Part shown: positions 2,415-10,126 of the stretch, in pieces
Numbering within the stretch: position 1 is the first letter of the stretch
Layout of the letters: the number at the start of each line of letters is the position of its first letter
Assembly (NCBI GenBank): GCA_048938445.1
Contig: JBHLME010000092.1
Span: forward strand, 1 to 10,126
Direction: 5' to 3'
From: Promethearchaeota archaeon
GTDB lineage: Archaea; Asgardarchaeota; Lokiarchaeia; Sigyniarchaeales; SOKP01
DNA length: 10,126 nucleotides
Made by a program: the position numbers and the translations under genes
The notes under the pieces: model-generated
Database searches by the model: none
Told to the model about the DNA's origin: nothing
What the model saw: only the letters and a program-made list of their open reading frames with translations

Positions 2415-2519
2415 TTAAAAAATTAAATTTATTATAAAAAGAAAGAGAAATCCCATGGTGAATAAACTTGCTATTCCTATGATAGCAATTATAATTTCAT
2501 ACCATAATTTAACATTCAT
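2415..2519 (-). CDS. 34-aa hydrophobic membrane micro-protein, copy A (not in ORF track): MNVKLWYEIIIAIIGIASLFTMGFLFLFIINLIF
   Basis: ATG at 2519, TAA at 2417-2415, purine-rich leader GAGGGCAAGGGAAA-ATG. It is 27/34 aa identical to copy B, with 13 synonymous codon differences. Confidence 0.85.
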   Translation of the reverse strand: MNVKLWYEIIIAIIGIASLFTMGFLFLFIINLIF

Positions 2520-2572
2520 TTTCCCTTGCCCTCCAATATAATAAAAGTAATTCAACATGTAATAAAAAAATT

Positions 2573-2641
2573 TCATTTTCGAGTTTTCTTTTTAACATTA
2601 AGGTAGGCATATGGCTATTTATTCTTGAATCATAAATATTA
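2573..2641 (-). pseudogene. Possible decayed remnant of the carbonic anhydrase 3' end
   Basis: Reads ...KKKTRK-TGA against ...KKKSQK-TGA in the intact gene, with the stop the same 53 nt upstream of the micro-protein ATG. Further upstream there is a net 2-nt indel and an in-frame stop. Confidence 0.45.
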
Positions 2642-2878
2642 TTAATTATACCCTAGAAAGTAATCTATTTAGAGTAAAAAAGAAACAATAATATTTTTTA
2701 TTTTTAACGTATACCTTTTGGTAATTATATAAATATTTCAATTATTTACCACATGAATTTAAATACCAAAGGATGTATTTTAATTCTTGCCAATAGAAGA
2801 CTAGTATCTATAATCTTATATATAGATAAAATAATAATTTAATTTATATAAAAAAACAATTTATTGAGGATTATTTTC

Positions 2879-4558
2879 ATGCGGCTAAGGACAATTTTAA
2901 TGATTATTTTAGTATTAATAAGTGTAATTATTCAGCTTTTTGGAATACCCTTTATAGGTTTTTTTCAATCAAGTCATGATCTGGAATTTAATTATATTTA
3001 TAATTGGAATTTAGTTGGAACTGGGGGTTATTACGATGGTTATTCTGAGACCTTTAAAGCAGAAGGAAACTACAAGATAGATTTTAATGGGAATATAGGT
3101 AATGTTTCTGGTACTGTATCATGGACTTGGACTGAAAATGATTATGGCAACGTAATATCTTCAATTGATAATTATATCTTCTCATATTCATTACTCAATG
3201 GATCCTACATTTGGGGTACAGATCAAGATGAGATTGACACATCGGGATTAAATGTCTGGTTTCACATTCCACAAGGATTATCCGCACAAAACAGAGGAAT
3301 TTTAGATGCGAATTATACTCTTAGTGGACCTTCAACCTTTTGGGCTGGGAAACTAGTACCATTTTTGAGTGTAAAATTGTATTCAATAGGAACTTTTGAG
3401 AGAGATGATGAATATGGACAGTTTACTGCTAATTATATTTCTGAATATCATTTTACTCCATGTGGTTACTTATTAGGAGAACTCTGGACAGAAACAGATC
3501 GTGGATTTGACAAGGATACTGGAAGGTGGTCAGAATTTAACATAAATTCTTATGTGTGCGTAACATCGGCTAATTACATTCGACCATTTGATTTTTTGAT
3601 ATATTTTCTTACTTATTGGTCATGGATATTCATTATTGGTGTTCTATTATTCATAGTATATGAAAAATATAGATGGAGAACTCGCTATGTTTCTGGAGAA
3701 CTTAAAGCATCAAAGGATATTGTTATTGAGAGAAATCTGCCAAAAAATGCACAATTATCTATTTCATCAAAATATGTGGAATGTATACCTGCTTACTTAA
3801 CTAATGCGAATTTACAAGATAAACTAATTATTTCAGCCTATTCTCAAGACAAAATCTTTGGAATTGGTTTTATAGAACAAAAGCGAAGAGTAGGAACTTT
3901 TTTTGGAACATATATAAATGAAATGGTCAAGTTTAGTAAAGTGAAATATGCTTTTTGTGAATATGAGAACGTTGGTAAATTAAAAATAATTGAAGAATAT
4001 AACATTTTTCAGATTAATGATATACAAAATCAAGAATATAACTATGATGCCACCCTCATTAGATCCGGGACAGATTTTTATTTACCAGCAATAATGAAAT
4101 TAATTGCTAATGAAGATTATGGTCGTAAACGTATAAAAAGGACAAAATGGGTCAAAGAAGCAGCAAAAAATGATATTATCGTAGTAGCAACTGCAAAAAG
4201 AGATGACGAGTGGATTAAAGATATATTATATGAGGTACATTCAAGAAATTACCCAAAACCAGAAGGACATCTTGATGAAATTCTTCTTGGCGTAGGATTT
4301 GCCACACCTGGAGATATAACCGGATGGCTTTATGGGTTATACGTTCATCCTGCATTTAGAAATTTTGGAATTGGGAGAAATTTAATGATGGCACGGTTAT
4401 CAATGTTAAAGGAAATTGGAGTTAATAACGTTATAACAGAAATTGCTGATTGGAATGGTCCTGCAAAAAGTATATACAAGCATATCAACGCAGAAATCAT
4501 TGGAAAAATGAAACTTTTTGGAAGAAAAATGCCTAAAGTAAAGGTGAGAAGATATTGA
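2879..4558 (+). CDS. Membrane-spanning protein: signal/TM, beta-rich ectodomain, TM, cytoplasmic GNAT acetyltransferase (probably tandem, first copy degenerate)
   Basis: Hydrophobic N-terminus; second TM FLIYFLTYWSWIFIIGVLLFIVY followed by EKYRWR; GNAT motif A LYVHPAFRNFGIGRNLM and motif B VITEIADWNGPAKSIYK. I prefer ATG 2879 over TTG 2864 because GAGGA (2866-2870) sits 8 nt upstream. Confidence 0.85.
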   Translation: MRLRTILMIILVLISVIIQLFGIPFIGFFQSSHDLEFNYIYNWNLVGTGGYYDGYSETFKAEGNYKIDFNGNIGNVSGTVSWTWTENDYGNVISSIDNYIFSYSLLNGSYIWGTDQDEIDTSGLNVWFHIPQGLSAQNRGILDANYTLSGPSTFWAGKLVPFLSVKLYSIGTFERDDEYGQFTANYISEYHFTPCGYLLGELWTETDRGFDKDTGRWSEFNINSYVCVTSANYIRPFDFLIYFLTYWSWIFIIGVLLFIVYEKYRWRTRYVSGELKASKDIVIERNLPKNAQLSISSKYVECIPAYLTNANLQDKLIISAYSQDKIFGIGFIEQKRRVGTFFGTYINEMVKFSKVKYAFCEYENVGKLKIIEEYNIFQINDIQNQEYNYDATLIRSGTDFYLPAIMKLIANEDYGRKRIKRTKWVKEAAKNDIIVVATAKRDDEWIKDILYEVHSRNYPKPEGHLDEILLGVGFATPGDITGWLYGLYVHPAFRNFGIGRNLMMARLSMLKEIGVNNVITEIADWNGPAKSIYKHINAEIIGKMKLFGRKMPKVKVRRY

Positions 4559-5751
4559 CTTCCGTTTCTTTAAATAAAAAGGATATATATACAGAGTATT
4601 TAATGAATTCGAGAAATATAGAATTATATGAATGTTTTTCCCAAGATATTCAAATTAATCCTCAATTTAAATCACTTAAACAATGGATAAAAGTATATTT
4701 AGGACCCGCAACAGCAGATCTACATGGTATTCATAATAATAAAGTAAATGCGATTAGAGACGAAAATCGAAATGCCATTATTCCAGATCGACAATATATC
4801 ATAAATAATAGAAATTTTTACCTATCTGTTAAAGGATGTGGTGCTTATGAAGACATGTTTAACGGCGGAGAATTAAATCCAGATAAAATTAAAAAAGCTT
4901 GTAGAGATCCTTTATTGATTCAAAAAATTAACAATTTATCTACTGGATTGGGCTTTATCATGGCAGAATCATGGTTAGGAGAAAGTCCGTATGGTGCTCA
5001 AGGATTCATGAATGGTTTTGATGAATTGAAGTTTTCAATGGTTGCTGAAAAAAATTCTATAAATGGTGCTTATATTTGTCCAGTTATTGGAATAGTAAAA
5101 CTCCCAAAAAAAATAGAAGAGGTCGCTAGAAAATTTTTTTATTTTAGAACATATCAAGAACATTTTTATCAAGTCATTCGACTTGTTCCTTCAAGAGCAA
5201 GATTATATTTTGAATCATCTCATACTATAGCTGATCCAATTAATTTATTTTCAATTTTTGGAATTAAAACTCCAGAAGAGGTAGAACTCTTTGAACTCAA
5301 TTTTATAAAAAGCGGAATAGCTTTATTATCCCTATTTTCGCGATCCGCTAAAATTATAGGTAATAAAATATCGGGAATTGTATATCAAGATGTATGGATG
5401 GATAAGGATTGTATTGTGGCTCCGGATGGAATTATTCACTTTGCTGATTTAGAAGGTTTAATTTGGAAAAAAACTACCTATGATAACTTTCCAAAAATCC
5501 AGAAGATCGAGTGGGAAAAATTAGTTTTTGAGTTTTTATTTGCTCTAGTTAAAATTGATGATTACAGGCATTATTTATTAGAAGATAAAATAGAATGGGA
5601 AAAACAACGTAAGGAACTCGCACTTTATGTTCAGCTTTCATTAGATAAAGATCTATATGCATATCCAAAAGAAAAAAATGGGGATTTAAAAATTATAATT
5701 GAAGGACCCGAACTTCCTTCTGTTGAAGTCATGTTCTTAGAAAAGGTGTGA
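4555..5751 (+). CDS. Atypical protein-kinase-fold protein, remote SelO/YdiU-like (putative AMPylase or kinase)
   Basis: TTG start overlaps the previous TGA, with SD GGTGA at 4543-4547. Motifs in order: LSVKGCG, DELKFS, IRLVPSRARLYFE, QDVWMDKD...ADLEG. These compare with SelO LKGAG, RE, RVAPSHLRFGHFE and HGVMNTDN...DYG. The ORF is secure but the family is inferred. Confidence 0.65.
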   Translation: MTSVSLNKKDIYTEYLMNSRNIELYECFSQDIQINPQFKSLKQWIKVYLGPATADLHGIHNNKVNAIRDENRNAIIPDRQYIINNRNFYLSVKGCGAYEDMFNGGELNPDKIKKACRDPLLIQKINNLSTGLGFIMAESWLGESPYGAQGFMNGFDELKFSMVAEKNSINGAYICPVIGIVKLPKKIEEVARKFFYFRTYQEHFYQVIRLVPSRARLYFESSHTIADPINLFSIFGIKTPEEVELFELNFIKSGIALLSLFSRSAKIIGNKISGIVYQDVWMDKDCIVAPDGIIHFADLEGLIWKKTTYDNFPKIQKIEWEKLVFEFLFALVKIDDYRHYLLEDKIEWEKQRKELALYVQLSLDKDLYAYPKEKNGDLKIIIEGPELPSVEVMFLEKV

Positions 5752-5757
5752 AATTAA

Positions 5758-7209
5758 ATGAAATGTGAAAGAGCGCTAAAAATCTTATTAAATGTGAAAA
5801 GTGGTTTTGATATTAAATTAAATCAGGAAGAAATTGAAGAATTAATTCAACTCGGATTTGTTTCTTTATTTGAATTGCCTGTTGGTAATATTGATTTAGA
5901 TGAGGAATTGAGTAATCTTAAAAATAAGTATGTTCAAACGTCTGCTGAATTGAGAAAGCTTAGTAAAGAGATCATAGGAATTAAAGGGGATTATAACCAA
6001 CTCTTTAAATACAAGAAATTATTTGGGTTGCTTTCACTAAGAAAAATAATAAAATTAAAATTCCATTTAAAAGAATTAAAAGGAAAATCATTAGAAAAAG
6101 AAGATCAATTATATTTCTTTAAAAATCGCATATTAAACTTAAATGCAGAAAAAAAAGCTTTTAAAAATGCCATAAAGGTAAATGGAAAGCGAATTTCTCT
6201 TACTCCCTTGGGGGATACCTATATTGATGAAATTAAGGCAAGGAAGCGATTTTTTTCAAAAGATTTGATTGAAATAGTAAATCTTATCGAAAAACTTGAT
6301 GATCAATATTCAAGACTTTTAAATCAATTGGAAAATTTAATGAAAAGGAATTATTTTACACCAATATGGGGTTTATTTTTCATGAATATGGGAATGGTGA
6401 AACTGGGGAGTATCATGAATAGTATTACAAATAAATATTATTGGCCTAAAGCTCAAAAAAAAATGATGAAATTATCCATCAGTCAGTTAATAGATCCAAC
6501 TACAATTAATACAAGGTCTGCTACCATAACTTTAAATGAATATTCAAGCCACAATCCTTCAGAAAAATTAAATAGAATGTTTTATAAGAATAATCTTAAT
6601 ACTTATCTTAAACCTTTCAATGAAATAATCGAATTCATGGGGAATTTATTTGTAGCTTCATTTCTTGATTTCGATCCAGCAGAAAATGAAACTAATAAAT
6701 TTCTTGAACAACTAGATAATCATTTAAAAAATCAAATAATTAAAACTAAGAATAAAAAATATACAACAGCATCGCTATTAATCTTAGCTTTATCTCCAAA
6801 TCCCGAGAAATATCAATATTTTAATACTTTATTTACTGAAGCTCCAAATGGAAAAGAAATTTTTTCAACAATCGCCACGTTATTTCCATGGGATGTAGAG
6901 GAAACTTGGATGGTTTTATTACGAGCGGAATCTGTCATATTAAGAGCTCAAAGTGCAAAATTTATTCCTGAACTACTCGTATATGCATTATTATTAACTA
7001 TGAACCCAAGTATCCTTAATATAGAAGAGAATCTTGAAATGGAGGACTTAAAAAGATGGAGGTATTTAATCATACCCACAATCCATTTATTGAATTATGG
7101 TTTAATGGAAGAAGGTCTTGAAACTTATGTTAAAAGCAGACCATTAGCTTATATCATTTCTCCAAGATATCGAGTATATTCTTCACTACATTATCACAGA
7201 ATTGGGTGA
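5758..7209 (+). CDS. Hypothetical protein: N-terminal winged-helix-like unit interrupted by a long coiled coil, then a helical C-terminal domain of unknown function
   Basis: 483-aa ORF starting 6 nt after the previous stop, SD GGTG at 5745-5748. EELIQLGFV (aa 27-35) and ISLTPLG (aa 146-152) bracket a heptad-rich K/E/L segment. Confidence 0.7.
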   Translation: MKCERALKILLNVKSGFDIKLNQEEIEELIQLGFVSLFELPVGNIDLDEELSNLKNKYVQTSAELRKLSKEIIGIKGDYNQLFKYKKLFGLLSLRKIIKLKFHLKELKGKSLEKEDQLYFFKNRILNLNAEKKAFKNAIKVNGKRISLTPLGDTYIDEIKARKRFFSKDLIEIVNLIEKLDDQYSRLLNQLENLMKRNYFTPIWGLFFMNMGMVKLGSIMNSITNKYYWPKAQKKMMKLSISQLIDPTTINTRSATITLNEYSSHNPSEKLNRMFYKNNLNTYLKPFNEIIEFMGNLFVASFLDFDPAENETNKFLEQLDNHLKNQIIKTKNKKYTTASLLILALSPNPEKYQYFNTLFTEAPNGKEIFSTIATLFPWDVEETWMVLLRAESVILRAQSAKFIPELLVYALLLTMNPSILNIEENLEMEDLKRWRYLIIPTIHLLNYGLMEEGLETYVKSRPLAYIISPRYRVYSSLHYHRIG

Positions 7210-7372: not shown

Positions 7373-7492
7373 TTTCCCTTGCCCTCTAATTTTATAAAAT
7401 CAACAAAGTTATGGATTAAAAAAAATCATTTTTGAGATTTCTTTTTTATTAACATGGGAACACGGATATTTATTTTTGGTATATAAATTTTA
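7268..7492. repeat. Diverged direct repeat, right copy (partner 2415..2641)
   Basis: Colinear similarity to the left copy across the peptide gene, its leader and the last codons of the carbonic anhydrase gene. Confidence 0.75.
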
Positions 7493-8292
7493 GGCATTTT
7501 TATTTTTGGTATTTCAATCTGAAAAAGATGAGCTGGAGCATAAATAGATTGATCAGGTAACCCCTTATAATTAAAATCTTCAGAAATGACAAGTTCTTTA
7601 GGTTCTTGTGTTAAATTATTATTTTTCAGTTCTATCGGTTGATCTTCATGTTGGTTTTTTATAGTATTTTCTATTTTAGATTCTATAAGATCATTAAATT
7701 CGATACTTTTTTTCTGTTCAATTAATCGAGGATATTGCTTATTGAAATCCTCTATGAAATCAAATCTTTCAATTATTCTACTTTCAAAAACATATCCGGT
7801 ATTAACATCATATAACATCCCCGCAATTTGAATTTTTGAAGAAATTTTTCTATTATTTCTTAATGAACGAACCTGATTCGAGATATTCACTAATTCATCT
7901 ATAAATGGTTTAAAAAAATCTCGTAATTCATGAGTAGTTAAATTCATTTCTAATTTTGTTTTAAGCTCAAGTAACTTTATTTTAGTCATTCCGCAGTCCA
8001 AGTGTCCTAATACAATGAGATTTTTAACATTAAATTCACTAATTGCAATAAAAATAGATCTTAACATATCTCGCGCTATTACATTTCCAGCATTTCTTAA
8101 AATGAAGACATCACCGGGTTCTAATTGAAATATTCTGTGAACATCAATTCGTGGATCCATGCATGTTAGAATTAGTAGTGGATATTTAAGGATTATTTTT
8201 TCATTTTTAAGAGTTTCCAATCCATGCTGTAATTTCCGTTGAAATTTCTTATTTCCCTCCAATAATATCTTTTCAATTTCTTCTATCTGCAT
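7426..8292 (-). CDS. Beta-class carbonic anhydrase family protein with C-terminal extension
   Basis: Zn-binding motifs LTCMDPR and GHLDCG, plus RNAGN and GMLYDVNTG. About 110 extra C-terminal residues end in PKI repeats. Confidence 0.92.
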   Translation of the reverse strand: MQIEEIEKILLEGNKKFQRKLQHGLETLKNEKIILKYPLLILTCMDPRIDVHRIFQLEPGDVFILRNAGNVIARDMLRSIFIAISEFNVKNLIVLGHLDCGMTKIKLLELKTKLEMNLTTHELRDFFKPFIDELVNISNQVRSLRNNRKISSKIQIAGMLYDVNTGYVFESRIIERFDFIEDFNKQYPRLIEQKKSIEFNDLIESKIENTIKNQHEDQPIELKNNNLTQEPKELVISEDFNYKGLPDQSIYAPAHLFQIEIPKIKMPKIYIPKINIRVPMLIKKKSQK

Positions 8293-8373: not shown

Positions 8374-9552
8374 TCATTTTACTTTATTAATTAGTTCCTT
8401 CAATTTTTTAGGATTTCCATTTCCGAAGAAGTTTTTTATCTGATCAGAATATTCAGGTAATAATTGTAGGAATGGCAATATTGCTTTTGATAGTGAATTA
8501 AATGCATTTTCACCATCTCCCATAATGAACATCTTTTCTGGCTTCATATTTTTGAATATTTCTGGTAAGATATTAGTTAATTGAACCGCTAAAAATCTTT
8601 CATCAGCAGCACTCATGGATTCAACTTGGTTTAAAAAACCTTCAGCTTGAGCTACCATTTGTTGCCTAATACTTTCCGCTTCTCCTTCAGCTTGAGCTAC
8701 TAAAGTCTTTTTGATCTTTTGAGCTTCAGCTTCAGCTTCAATAACTTTCTTTTGTCGCTCACCATCAGCCTCAATTTTCTTACGTTCACGTTCTAAATCA
8801 GCAACAGCAATTTCTTTTTGTACTCTTTGAGTCTCGATTTGCCTGAAAACGTTCTGTTCTTCAATTCCAACTTCATTCTGTACTTCTAATTCTCGTAACC
8901 GTGATTCTCTCTCCGCAGTAGCCATCGAAATTCGCGCCTTTCTGGCTTCCTCCGCTTTTTTAGTAGCTTCCATGTTTTCTTTTAATTTAGGCTCTAAAAT
9001 GATTACTTCTCTGATTTCAATTGATTCTATAACTATACCCCAATCAGATGTTAATTCATGTAATTCCTTGCTAATACCCTTGATAATATCCCTGCGTTCT
9101 CGAATGATTTTTTCGAGCTCCATGTTAGCACAGGTGGTCCTAATAATTGCTTCTGCAGCATTTTTTAATATTTTTTCTACATAATTGTCATTATTTGTAC
9201 TCCAAGATACAGCACTAAATGCTTTCTCAGGATCAATTACTTTCCAGATTAACATGCCTGTAATGGAGATATTCTGATATTCTTTAGAAACCACTTGTTC
9301 ATGAGCTTCGAGTATTGTCTGGATACTGGTTGTCGGTATCACGAGATATTCATCTATTAAGGGTAATAACCAGAGGCTACCTCCAAGACCCGCATGTTTA
9401 ACCTTTCCATTACGCAAATGTATTACAAATTGGTTTGTTTTGAACTTTCTATATCGCGTAGCCATAAAAATGATAAATAGTAATACTACAATGACTATCG
9501 CTACTACGGCACTAACTATTAATATCTGGATATCTGGAACCATTTGGAACAT
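8374..9552 (-). CDS. SPFH (band 7)/flotillin-like membrane protein
   Basis: N-terminal TM, SPFH core (IRTTCANMELEKII..R, WGIVIESIEIREV), then an Ala/Glu-rich coiled coil (IEAEAEA, AQAEGEAE). It lies downstream of an NfeD-like gene, and a purine-rich GAGG leader occupies 9553-9584. Confidence 0.92.
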   Translation of the reverse strand: MFQMVPDIQILIVSAVVAIVIVVLLFIIFMATRYRKFKTNQFVIHLRNGKVKHAGLGGSLWLLPLIDEYLVIPTTSIQTILEAHEQVVSKEYQNISITGMLIWKVIDPEKAFSAVSWSTNNDNYVEKILKNAAEAIIRTTCANMELEKIIRERRDIIKGISKELHELTSDWGIVIESIEIREVIILEPKLKENMEATKKAEEARKARISMATAERESRLRELEVQNEVGIEEQNVFRQIETQRVQKEIAVADLERERKKIEADGERQKKVIEAEAEAQKIKKTLVAQAEGEAESIRQQMVAQAEGFLNQVESMSAADERFLAVQLTNILPEIFKNMKPEKMFIMGDGENAFNSLSKAILPFLQLLPEYSDQIKNFFGNGNPKKLKELINKVK

Positions 9553-9584
9553 TTTTTTCTCTTTCCTCTTTTTTTTTAAATTTT

Positions 9585-10126
9585 TTATCTTCTAATTAAT
9601 TTTTTATTATTATCTACTAATAGATAACCTTGACGGACATCACAAATGTAAACTCTCGTTCCTTCATCAAATTTCGATTCTGGATTTAAAGGTTTTACAT
9701 GTAATTTTTCAAATTTTAATGGAGTATCAGAACTCACTTTTATTACGCCTCCTCTTTCATCTACATCTAAAATCACTTCTGCTTCCTTCCCTATAAGATT
9801 TTTTGTTGAGGATATTTGATAAAATCTTGATTTCGCCATTTTTCGCCATCCTATAGAGATCAACTTTGTAATTAAGAAAGTTATTCCGGGTGTAATAGGG
9901 AATGCTAAAAATCTTATGGATTCAAAAGTGATGTAACTTGAAATCATTCCTGTTATACCGAAAACTAAGAGAGAAGTAGAAAATAATAACATAAAGGGAG
10001 CAGGAGTTGAATAATCTAAGACATTTGAATCTCCCATTTGACTTTGGCTGTCTATGTGATCGATATGTCCAAAATCTTTATCTAGGTGATCGACATGTCC
10101 AAAATCTTTATCTAGGTGATCGACAT
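9585..10126 (-). CDS. NfeD-like (YqiJ-type) SPFH partner protein, 5'-truncated by the window edge
   Basis: Two TM helices, then an OB-fold-like C-terminus (LIGKEAEV...GGVIKV...GTRVYICDV.QGYLLV). The frame stays open upstream of ATG 10037 to the window end, reading VDHLDKDFGHVDHLDKDFGHIDHIDSQSQ-M. Confidence 0.85.
   Translation of the reverse strand, partial: VDHLDKDFGHVDHLDKDFGHIDHIDSQSQMGDSNVLDYSTPAPFMLLFSTSLLVFGITGMISSYITFESIRFLAFPITPGITFLITKLISIGWRKMAKSRFYQISSTKNLIGKEAEVILDVDERGGVIKVSSDTPLKFEKLHVKPLNPESKFDEGTRVYICDVRQGYLLVDNNKKLIRR
10056..10126. repeat. 30-bp coding tandem repeat (about 2.4 copies visible) encoding HVDHLDKDFG
   Basis: GTGATCGA(T/C)ATGTCCAAAATCTTTATCTAG at 10056-10085 and 10086-10115 (1 mismatch), with a partial third copy at 10116-10126. 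Confidence 0.93.

Follow-up and report, generated by a model that had tools for sequence, protein, structure and literature searches.

We analysed a 10,126-nt stretch of DNA from a Promethearchaeota archaeon (contig JBHLME010000092.1; the whole stretch is hereafter called the window) and focused on g4, the middle gene of a three-gene cassette, g3-g4-g5. An earlier note, made from the sequence, had described the g4 product as a remote member of the SelO/YdiU family with a kinase fold and a rewired catalytic loop. Judged from its structural model, g4 is best explained as an active enzyme of a new protein-kinase-like family, nearest in shape to the SelO/YdiU nucleotidyl-transferases, and the cassette points to an undescribed protein-modification system. 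The literature covered, which lay outside the subscription journals and included a 2025 review of bacterial pseudokinases, yielded no description of the g4 family or of the cassette.

The g3-g4-g5 cassette and its glycine-ended protein

The reading frame that the earlier note had assigned to g4, and every motif it had quoted from the translation, were recovered exactly: ENRNAII at residues 70-76 (nt 4762-4782), LSVKGCG at 90-96 (K93 at nt 4831), DELKFS at 156-161, RLVPSRARLYFE at 209-220 (starting at nt 5179), QDVWMDKD at 278-285 and ADLEG at 297-301 (D298 at nt 5446). The TTG that opens the frame overlaps the TGA stop of g3 by 4 nt, an in-frame ATG at residue 17 offers an alternative start, and the protein ends at residue 398 (...FLEKV).

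Table 1 Features of the cassette, with positions in the window
Feature	Position	Strand	Basis or remark
g3, 564-aa membrane protein with cytoplasmic GNAT acetyltransferase domain	2864..4558	+	Pfam, hydropathy
g4, 398-aa protein, predicted SelO-like kinase-fold enzyme	4555..5751	+	Open reading frame list; TTG start
g4 D69-E-N-R72-N, turn between the first two long strands (63-68, 73-83)	4759..4773	+	R72 in 64/64; proposed phosphate-binding Arg
g4 L-S-V-K93-G-C-G; K93 ends strand 86-93	4822..4842	+	Proposed strand-3 Lys (YdiU Lys107 position)
g4 R209-L-V-P-S-x-x-R216	5179..5202	+	Proposed Arg pair for beta/gamma-phosphates (YdiU Arg170/Arg177)
g4 D283-K284-D285, end of catalytic loop; D285 immediately before strand 286-288	5401..5409	+	Proposed metal ligand
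g4 D298-L-E300, two residues past strand 294-296	5446..5454	+	Putative DFG-type metal-binding Asp and always-acidic extra residue
g5, 483-aa helical partner	5758..7209	+	Proposed substrate; starts 7 nt past the g4 stop
g5 tail S-S-L-H-Y-H-R-I-G, then stop	7180..7206	+	Proposed modification site

The g3 product carries two transmembrane helices predicted from hydropathy (residues 10-28 and 246-264), and the segment between them forms an outside domain of ~215 residues rich in aromatics and Gly/Asn. Its C-terminal acetyltransferase domain was recognised as Acetyltransf_1 (PF00583; E 9.3e-08, residues 477-539) with an R-x-x-G-x-G motif, alongside weak RimI-type NCBIfam lines. A 456-bp gene-free segment (2408-2863) that includes the lowest G+C of the window (0.21, bin 2501-3000) lies 5' of the cassette and is its likely promoter region.

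No Pfam or NCBIfam family was found for g5. Its model was all-helical (mean predicted local distance difference test score, pLDDT, 74.5), with residues 453-483 below pLDDT 50, so the tail is probably flexible. Foldseek of this model was uninformative (best E 0.15), and VIA-align returned only a generic coiled-coil hairpin (residues 43-138; Z up to 12.2, within the range of the tool's warning for helical models).

The order and strand of g3-g4-g5 were kept in 15/15 loci from other genomes of the same order, across which the remaining window genes were not conserved. Within the phylum g4 was patchy, occurring in 21 of the 301 genomes searched, including 18/68 of its own family and 2/7 of the sister family; it was found in none of the 28 other families sampled and was missing from both of the other genomes in the window's genus. 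The same genomes yielded canonical SelO in 0/301 cases. A wider scan of one genome per species with a 19-sequence alignment confirmed 292 loci, 80 of which were kept for analysis. These distant loci came from archaea (Thermoplasmata, Methanomassiliicoccaceae, Bathyarchaeia, Methanoperedens, Nitrososphaerales and Promethearchaeota) and from bacteria (Sandaracinaceae and other Myxococcota, a few 'Proteobacteria' metagenome-assembled genomes (MAGs) and one Acidobacteriota MAG). A hidden Markov model of Loki-type g3 matched in 76 of the 80, two of the four misses being cut off upstream, and the g3-like gene lay either directly upstream of g4 or just past the g5-like gene. This conserved setting, with its Gly-ended partner, is decisive for reading g4 and had escaped the earlier note.

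The feature that recurred most strictly in g5 was its end. All 16 Loki-order orthologues end in S-[SM]-L-H-[YH]-H-x-[IV]-G-stop, two of them although only about 26% identical to g5. In the 80 distant loci, a terminal Gly was present in 63 of the 76 complete downstream open reading frames, compared with 82 of 1021 (8%) other frames of at least 200 aa from the same loci, which served as controls. A His-x-His (HxH) motif followed by 1-12 residues and a final Gly was found in 49/76 downstream frames and 7/1021 controls; all seven control matches were the real downstream gene, where the automatic pick had taken a longer overlapping frame. Typical distant tails were GGxHPAHVHGVGGFMG, FHPVHSHYVYG, THPMHMHTVPYFG and ...RSxGWG, and tail fragments were seen in two further loci. 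The spacing from HxH to the end varied from 2 to about 12 residues but the final residue stayed Gly, which argues that the terminus itself matters.

A quick g4 tree, whose search was left unfinished, gathered the 15 Loki-type sequences into a single long-stemmed clade and split Thermoplasmata over at least three clades, a pattern that may reflect some lateral movement. Several loci depart from the common layout. In the tree, the g4 genes of the Acidobacteriota-labelled MAG and of a Bathyarchaeota MAG (L082 and L088) are sisters on very short branches of 0.07-0.08, and both loci carry a 243-268-aa downstream frame instead of a tail protein; the pair could reflect mis-binning, recent transfer or a cassette variant. 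In one Promethearchaeota MAG (L049) there is also a cassette of a second type, its g4 grouping with Methanoperedens and not with the Loki-type clade and its downstream protein ending ...YYRRYGGFG. In some Thermoplasmata (L079, L081, L092, L106, L107, L116) the g3-like protein encoded past the g5-like gene is ~760-870 aa long (in L092 a 1195-aa stop-to-stop frame) and ends in a C-P-x-C-G-A-P zinc-ribbon-like motif, an architecture unlike the Loki-type membrane GNAT.

Predicted fold, homologues and putative active site of g4

Sequence searches attached g4 to no named family. Its sole Pfam line was DUF7632 (E 0.026, under the cut-off), with no SelO, Pkinase or IucA/IucC match at E <= 1, and NCBIfam, PADLOC and PDB sequences gave no usable match; with PADLOC silent, a known defence system was rejected. 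None of 30 alignment members (E <= 1) and none of 29 distant relatives (E <= 0.01) matched Pfam SelO or, at the same thresholds, any other Pfam family, and Pkinase in particular was missed by g4 and all 30 members. A word-indexed search returned 95 homologues, all unnamed or 'hypothetical', such names as exist being Asgard labels, and an exhaustive profile search of 1.84 billion representatives returned 121 relatives at E <= 0.001 and 83 at E <= 1e-10. No fusion was detected at E <= 1e-5 among proteins of 757-2160 residues, weak evidence by the tool's own account.

An AlphaFold2 model of g4 built with the 30-sequence alignment reached a mean pLDDT of 93.5 and a predicted TM-score of 0.91, with uncertainty only at residues 1-9. 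Foldseek against the PDB gave seven matches at E <= 0.001, all of them chains or entries of E. coli YdiU, followed by Pseudomonas syringae SelO (6eac) at ranks 8-9 (E 1.3e-3 and 1.7e-3); WaaP, haspin, receptor kinases and nonribosomal-peptide-synthetase-independent siderophore (NIS) synthetases appeared lower down. VIA-align over 48,161 chains put P. syringae SelO (6eac_A) first, with Z 14.1, a root-mean-square deviation (rmsd) of 4.0 and 12% identity over 262 residues (model 13-387), ahead of the NIS synthetases SbnC (Z 12.0), AcsD (11.4) and AsbB (10.4) and of many ordinary kinases at Z about 9. When the Foldseek top 1000 were re-aligned, ranks 1-7 all went to the seven SelO/YdiU entries (Z 15.2, 14.5, 13.9, 13.7, 13.5, 12.4 and 12.2). 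SelO/YdiU matches aligned over 251-262 residues, and model 13-387 fell onto chain residues 6-332 of a 477-residue YdiU; beyond them, NIS synthetases reached Z 12.1 at most and the best ordinary kinase Z 10.1. In the ESM Atlas, the first named row of the structure search was a UPF0061/SelO cluster (TM 0.56/0.64), and the feature neighbours included an 'MchC protein' cluster at 0.94, with Pfam SelO in 35% of its members. Because Foldseek, VIA-align, re-alignment and Atlas agree, a kinase-like fold with special closeness to SelO is well supported for the g4 model, and the fold assignment of the earlier note, with SelO/YdiU as the closest solved relative, holds in two independent structure searches and the re-alignment.

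The second-ranking neighbours raise another reading, in which g4 would be an NIS-type ligase joining an amine to a metabolite acid that it has first adenylated, g5 not being a substrate. SbnC, AcsD, IucA, AsbB, DesD and AlcC align to the model at Z 9.3-12.1 over 267-295 residues, and aerobactin-type pathways also use an acetyltransferase. SelO nevertheless scores higher (Z up to 15.2), IucA/IucC does not match in Pfam, g4 has 398 residues against 548-595, and such a ligase leaves the invariant g5 tail unexplained. Moreover, only g3 and g5 recur around g4, with no other biosynthetic or transport genes conserved. We consider this reading very unlikely, and a siderophore pathway was rejected, with no such genes conserved in the neighbourhood.

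As set out in one YdiU study (10.1101/692707), Arg87, Lys107, Arg170 and Arg177 orient the beta- and gamma-phosphates of a flipped nucleotide, Asn247 and Asp256 clamp it through two metal ions, Asp119/Gly120 fix the base and Asp246 is the proposed general base. The P. syringae SelO counterparts are K113, E136, R176, R183, N253 and D262, again with ATP flipped (PMC8097203).

We counted conservation of g4 residues in an alignment of 64 diverse homologues (effective number of sequences, Neff, 6.5; identity down to 15%). R72 (64/64), K93 (63/64), R209 (62/64) and R216 (61/64) are the proposed counterparts of YdiU Arg87, Lys107, Arg170 and Arg177, D285 (59/64, Asn in 2) that of Asn247, and D298 (64/64) that of Asp256; E300 (59/64, Asp in the other five) has no counterpart, SelO having Gly there. 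G94 (64/64), G96 (61/64), Q206 (63/64), P212 (64/64) and S213 (60/64) are also near-invariant, as are P145, G147 and P176. The four basic residues follow the order of the YdiU phosphate grip, and in R-x-x-P-S-x-x-R the spacing from Arg to Arg is 7 in both the g4 family and SelO. In terms of kinase architecture, we assign R72 to the Gly-rich loop, K93 to the strand-3 Lys, D285 to the loop Asn and D298 to the DFG Asp. By strand register the HRD-Asp position is V280, which is Val in 44/64, like the Val of SelO H-G-V, with no conserved Asp there; the adjacent D279 is Asp in 44/64. Part of what the earlier note had drawn from the motifs was borne out: four of its five motifs are conserved far beyond chance, the Arg/Lys/Arg-Arg/Asp/Asp set is colinear with the flipped-nucleotide residues of YdiU, and in the strand register of the model D285 stands at the SelO Asn position and D298-L-E300 at that of D-Y/F-G.

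Read from sequence, this conservation is the pattern of a working active site, because K93, D285, D298 and the three Arg are kept from Myxococcota to Asgard archaea. A catalytically dead scaffold that, like a pseudokinase, merely binds nucleotide or g5 would fit the lack of an HRD Asp and of a conserved helix-C Glu, but retention of D298, D285, K93 and three near-invariant Arg across such distant lineages makes it the least probable of the readings considered, and a very unlikely one; SelO itself was once called a pseudokinase (PMC8097203). A conventional phosphotransferase, binding ATP in the usual orientation and phosphorylating g5, another protein or a small molecule, is a further reading. 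It would account for a kinase-like fold with strand-3 Lys, loop Asp and DFG-type Asp, for hundreds of true kinases at Z 8-10 and for D279. It is nonetheless unlikely: an invariant catalytic Asp is missing (V280 and D279 each being kept in only 44/64), no Pfam kinase family matches at E <= 1, all the closest structures (SelO, then NIS synthetases) carry out alpha-phosphate chemistry, and R72, R209 and R216 match the SelO-specific phosphate grip, Arg residues for which we know of no counterpart in ordinary kinases.

Candidate reactions and the evidence for and against them

We propose that g4 would bind ATP or another nucleoside triphosphate in the flipped manner of SelO, with R72, K93, R209 and R216 gripping the beta- and gamma-phosphates and D285 together with D298/E300 holding the metal ion(s). 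The alpha-phosphate would thereby be exposed, and g4 would transfer a nucleoside monophosphate (NMP) to the g5 tail with release of pyrophosphate. We give nucleotide transfer onto the g5 tail a probability of roughly 0.55, because the SelO-type grip and metal ligands are kept while the kinase base is lacking, because both nearest structural families perform alpha-phosphate chemistry, and because g4 is genetically locked to a protein whose only universal feature is a flexible, Gly-ended tail.

In its specific form, the acceptor would be the free carboxylate of the terminal Gly483, and the resulting acyl-adenylate would be passed to an amine or hydroxyl acceptor, helped or controlled by the GNAT protein g3. 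We advance adenylation of this carboxylate tentatively and at less than even odds. A carboxylate is favoured over a His, Tyr or Ser side chain because the HxH spacing varies while the last Gly is constant, and because precedents are set by the glutamylase SidJ, by the microcin protein pair of MchC/MceJ and an acyltransferase, and by the NIS synthetases.

The closest competitor keeps the nucleotide transfer and moves its target: g4 would, like SelO/YdiU, place AMP or UMP on one of the side chains (His, Tyr or Ser) within the S-S-L-H-Y-H of the g5 tail, the Gly serving only for recognition. The same fold and active-site evidence would support it, and HxH is kept in 49/76 distant and 16/16 close tails. 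It leaves unexplained, however, the exact Gly end despite variable HxH spacing, gives the acyltransferase partner no role, and sits poorly with the Sandaracinaceae tails (...RSxGWG), which keep the Gly, often without a strict HxH near the end. Side-chain modification is thus possible but, in our judgement, doubtful.

Several results weigh against transfer to the g5 terminus by a SelO-like g4. According to the YdiU study, that enzyme UMPylates Tyr and His residues (10.1101/692707). In the Foldseek comparison the TM-scores were only 0.30-0.36, with rmsd of 13-14 A over long global alignments, and the highest NIS synthetase values (Z 12.0-12.1) overlap the weakest SelO entries (12.2-12.4). The equivalences between g4 and YdiU residues were set by motif order and the strand register of the model, not by superposition; the loop residue D285 is Asp where SelO has Asn, and K284 (Lys in 50/64) stands where YdiU has the proposed general base Asp246. 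No helix-C Glu is conserved in the 64 homologues (E157 20/64, E138 45/64, E143 36/64), and the proposed pairing of DELKFS with the 'RE' of SelO is lost, the motif not being conserved and its E157 being Glu in so few sequences. By Pfam and NCBIfam, g3 looks like an ordinary, weakly RimI-like GNAT of the acetyl-CoA type, and its role may be a plain acetylation instead of the resolution of an adenylate. A tail protein is missing from five loci (L051, a 2.2-kb contig, and L082, L088, L106 and L112). A complex prediction of g4 with ATP, Mg and g5 428-483 scored 0.02 against a mark of 0.32, which bears neither way on binding.

Profile comparison also counts on this side. We aligned the g4 family with hhalign, run without secondary-structure scoring, to 11 aligned SelO sequences, drawn from nine sources and 33-100% identical, and obtained probabilities of 0.28% with the 30-sequence g4 profile and 5.2% with the 64-sequence profile. 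Against MchC the values were 0.10% for E. coli MchC alone and 0.26% and 1.6% for an alignment of E. coli MchC and seven relatives (8 sequences), whereas the positive control, SelO against MchC, gave 96.1% (E 3.5e-9, 316 columns). The sole local alignment common to both SelO comparisons, g4 64-98 with YdiU 79-112, was not significant; in it, R72 falls opposite the Arg of GDGR and K93 opposite the Lys of LKGAG, the pairing that the earlier note had proposed. A missing Pfam match of g4 says little in itself, because E. coli MchC, an accepted distant branch, also has no Pfam SelO match at E <= 1. In 2012 the kinase fold of SelO was predicted in a paper that classes MchC as a distant SELO subfamily (PMC3281104). 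Since hhalign sees this distant branch but not the g4 family, the description of g4 as a remote family member survives for shape and motif order and not for sequence profiles (0.3% and 5.2% against the 96.1% control). We accordingly read g4 and its relatives as a new family within the kinase-like superfamily, SelO being the nearest known neighbour and membership in PF02696 not being demonstrable.

A bolder extension of the proposed terminal adenylation treats the cassette as a ubiquitin/Atg8-like conjugation device built from unrelated parts, in which g4 instead of an E1 would adenylate the C-terminal Gly of g5 and g3 would couple it to an amine. That amine could be a lipid head group, a cell-envelope component or a protein lysine, and the ~215-residue outside domain of g3 may gate the coupling. 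We regard this device as improbable. If it were true, it would be a third, independent way to activate a protein C-terminus, shared by some Myxococcota with the Asgard archaea and several further archaeal lineages; activation of the terminal Gly would in itself give the archaeal lineage closest to eukaryotes a new route for conjugating protein C-termini.

Neighbouring genes and known systems

The other genes of the window have their own affinities. On the forward strand, the 464-aa product of 248-1642 is probably a surface protein, having a hydrophobic segment at its N terminus, a transmembrane anchor at its C terminus and seven SBBP beta-propeller repeats (Pfam E 4.5e-30); an SBBP homologue lies near the cassette in only 1/15 related loci. 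On the reverse strand, 7426-8292 encodes a beta-class carbonic anhydrase (Pro_CA, E 1.5e-22) with a C-terminal extension of ~140 residues ending in a repetitive IPKIKMPKIYIPKINI-like segment. On the same strand, 8374-10037 holds the classical NfeD-stomatin operon pair: a gene for a small membrane protein whose C-terminal domain weakly resembles NfeD and, immediately downstream of it, one for an SPFH/Band-7 protein (E 1.1e-29). The frame upstream of the NfeD-like ATG (10040-10124, reverse strand) encodes the tandem VDHLDKDFGH / VDHLDKDFGH / IDHIDSQSQ and runs off the window edge, so that either the NfeD-like gene starts further upstream or this is a short coding-like DNA repeat.

Among known systems, SelO/YdiU (PF02696; PDB 6EAC, 6K20, 6LNA, 6III, 9JYM) is the best structural match of g4 (Z 12.2-15.2). 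Both share, in the same order, a loop Arg, a strand-3 Lys-Gly-x-Gly, R-x-x-P-S-x-x-R, a loop metal ligand (a proposed one in g4) and a DFG-type Asp, as well as Val at the HRD-Asp position. They differ in that g4 shows no Pfam match or significant profile-profile link, and carries Asp for the loop Asn, D-L-E for D-Y/F-G and Lys for YdiU Asp246. In addition, the base-fixing loop that follows the Lys is not the same, g4 has neither the C-terminal domain of ~130 residues nor the Cys/Sec tail, and it belongs to a three-gene cassette of its own. That ATP can be flipped and AMP transferred by a 'dead' kinase is known from SelO, and SidJ showed that a protein carboxylate can be adenylated by the same fold. 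The g4 family, which is compact, strongly conserved and unannotated and brings its own candidate substrate and acyltransferase, would give direct access to what flipped-ATP kinase-fold chemistry can do beyond Ser/Thr/Tyr AMPylation.

The microcin proteins MchC/MceJ with MchD/MceI resemble the cassette in that a SelO-related kinase-fold protein is encoded beside an acyltransferase-fold protein; of the plasmid loci whose neighbours are visible, 6/6 have an MchC-like gene next to one for an acyltransferase. According to two papers, MchC/MceJ works in complex with the acyltransferase and modifies the C-terminal residue of microcins (PMC3281104; PMC6071977), a hint that relatives of SelO may join forces with acyltransferases at the C-termini of proteins; the exact MceIJ chemistry has been stated as unknown (PMC7472721). 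Microcin H47 has a fixed Gly/Ser-rich end, comparable to the fixed g5 tail, and E. coli MchC, like g4, lacks a Pfam SelO match. The MceIJ reaction is ATP-dependent. In contrast to g4, which hhalign links to neither family, MchC is linked to SelO at 96.1%; its partner MchD is HlyC (PF02794, E 2.4e-11) and not a membrane Acetyltransf_1 GNAT like g3, the substrate is an exported peptide ending in Ser rather than, as proposed for g4, a ~500-aa cytoplasmic protein ending in Gly, and the cassette lacks glycosyltransferase, esterase and exporter genes. The mchC gene of the microcin H47 cluster in E. coli CFT073 (L040:37322-38872) is itself labelled only 'hypothetical protein' in RefSeq.

The SidJ/SdjA glutamylases offer the acyl-adenylate chemistry proposed here for Gly483. 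In the SidJ report, a kinase-like site that orients its nucleotide much as SelO does converts a protein carboxylate into an acyl-adenylate (10.1101/2021.04.13.439722). SidJ was not among the top structural matches listed for g4, and it differs in targeting a Glu side chain, needing calmodulin and having within itself a second pocket where the adenylate is resolved. NIS synthetases (IucA/IucC: SbnC, AcsD, AsbB, IucA, DesD, AlcC), the second-best structural neighbours at Z 9.3-12.1, activate carboxylates with ATP; they are larger than g4 (548-595 aa) and act on small molecules in siderophore clusters, of which there is none here.

The last comparison is with E1-type activation of a C-terminal Gly, known for ubiquitin, SAMP, Atg8 and ThiS/MoaD. 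The parts are different, a Rossmann-like E1/MoeB fold against the kinase-like g4 and a beta-grasp protein against the ~500-aa helical g5, and the cassette has no E2/E3 or sulfur-transfer genes. The analogy lies in the arrangement: in both, a dedicated protein with a flexible tail and an invariant terminal Gly is encoded beside an ATP-using enzyme, or, for g4, a putative one.

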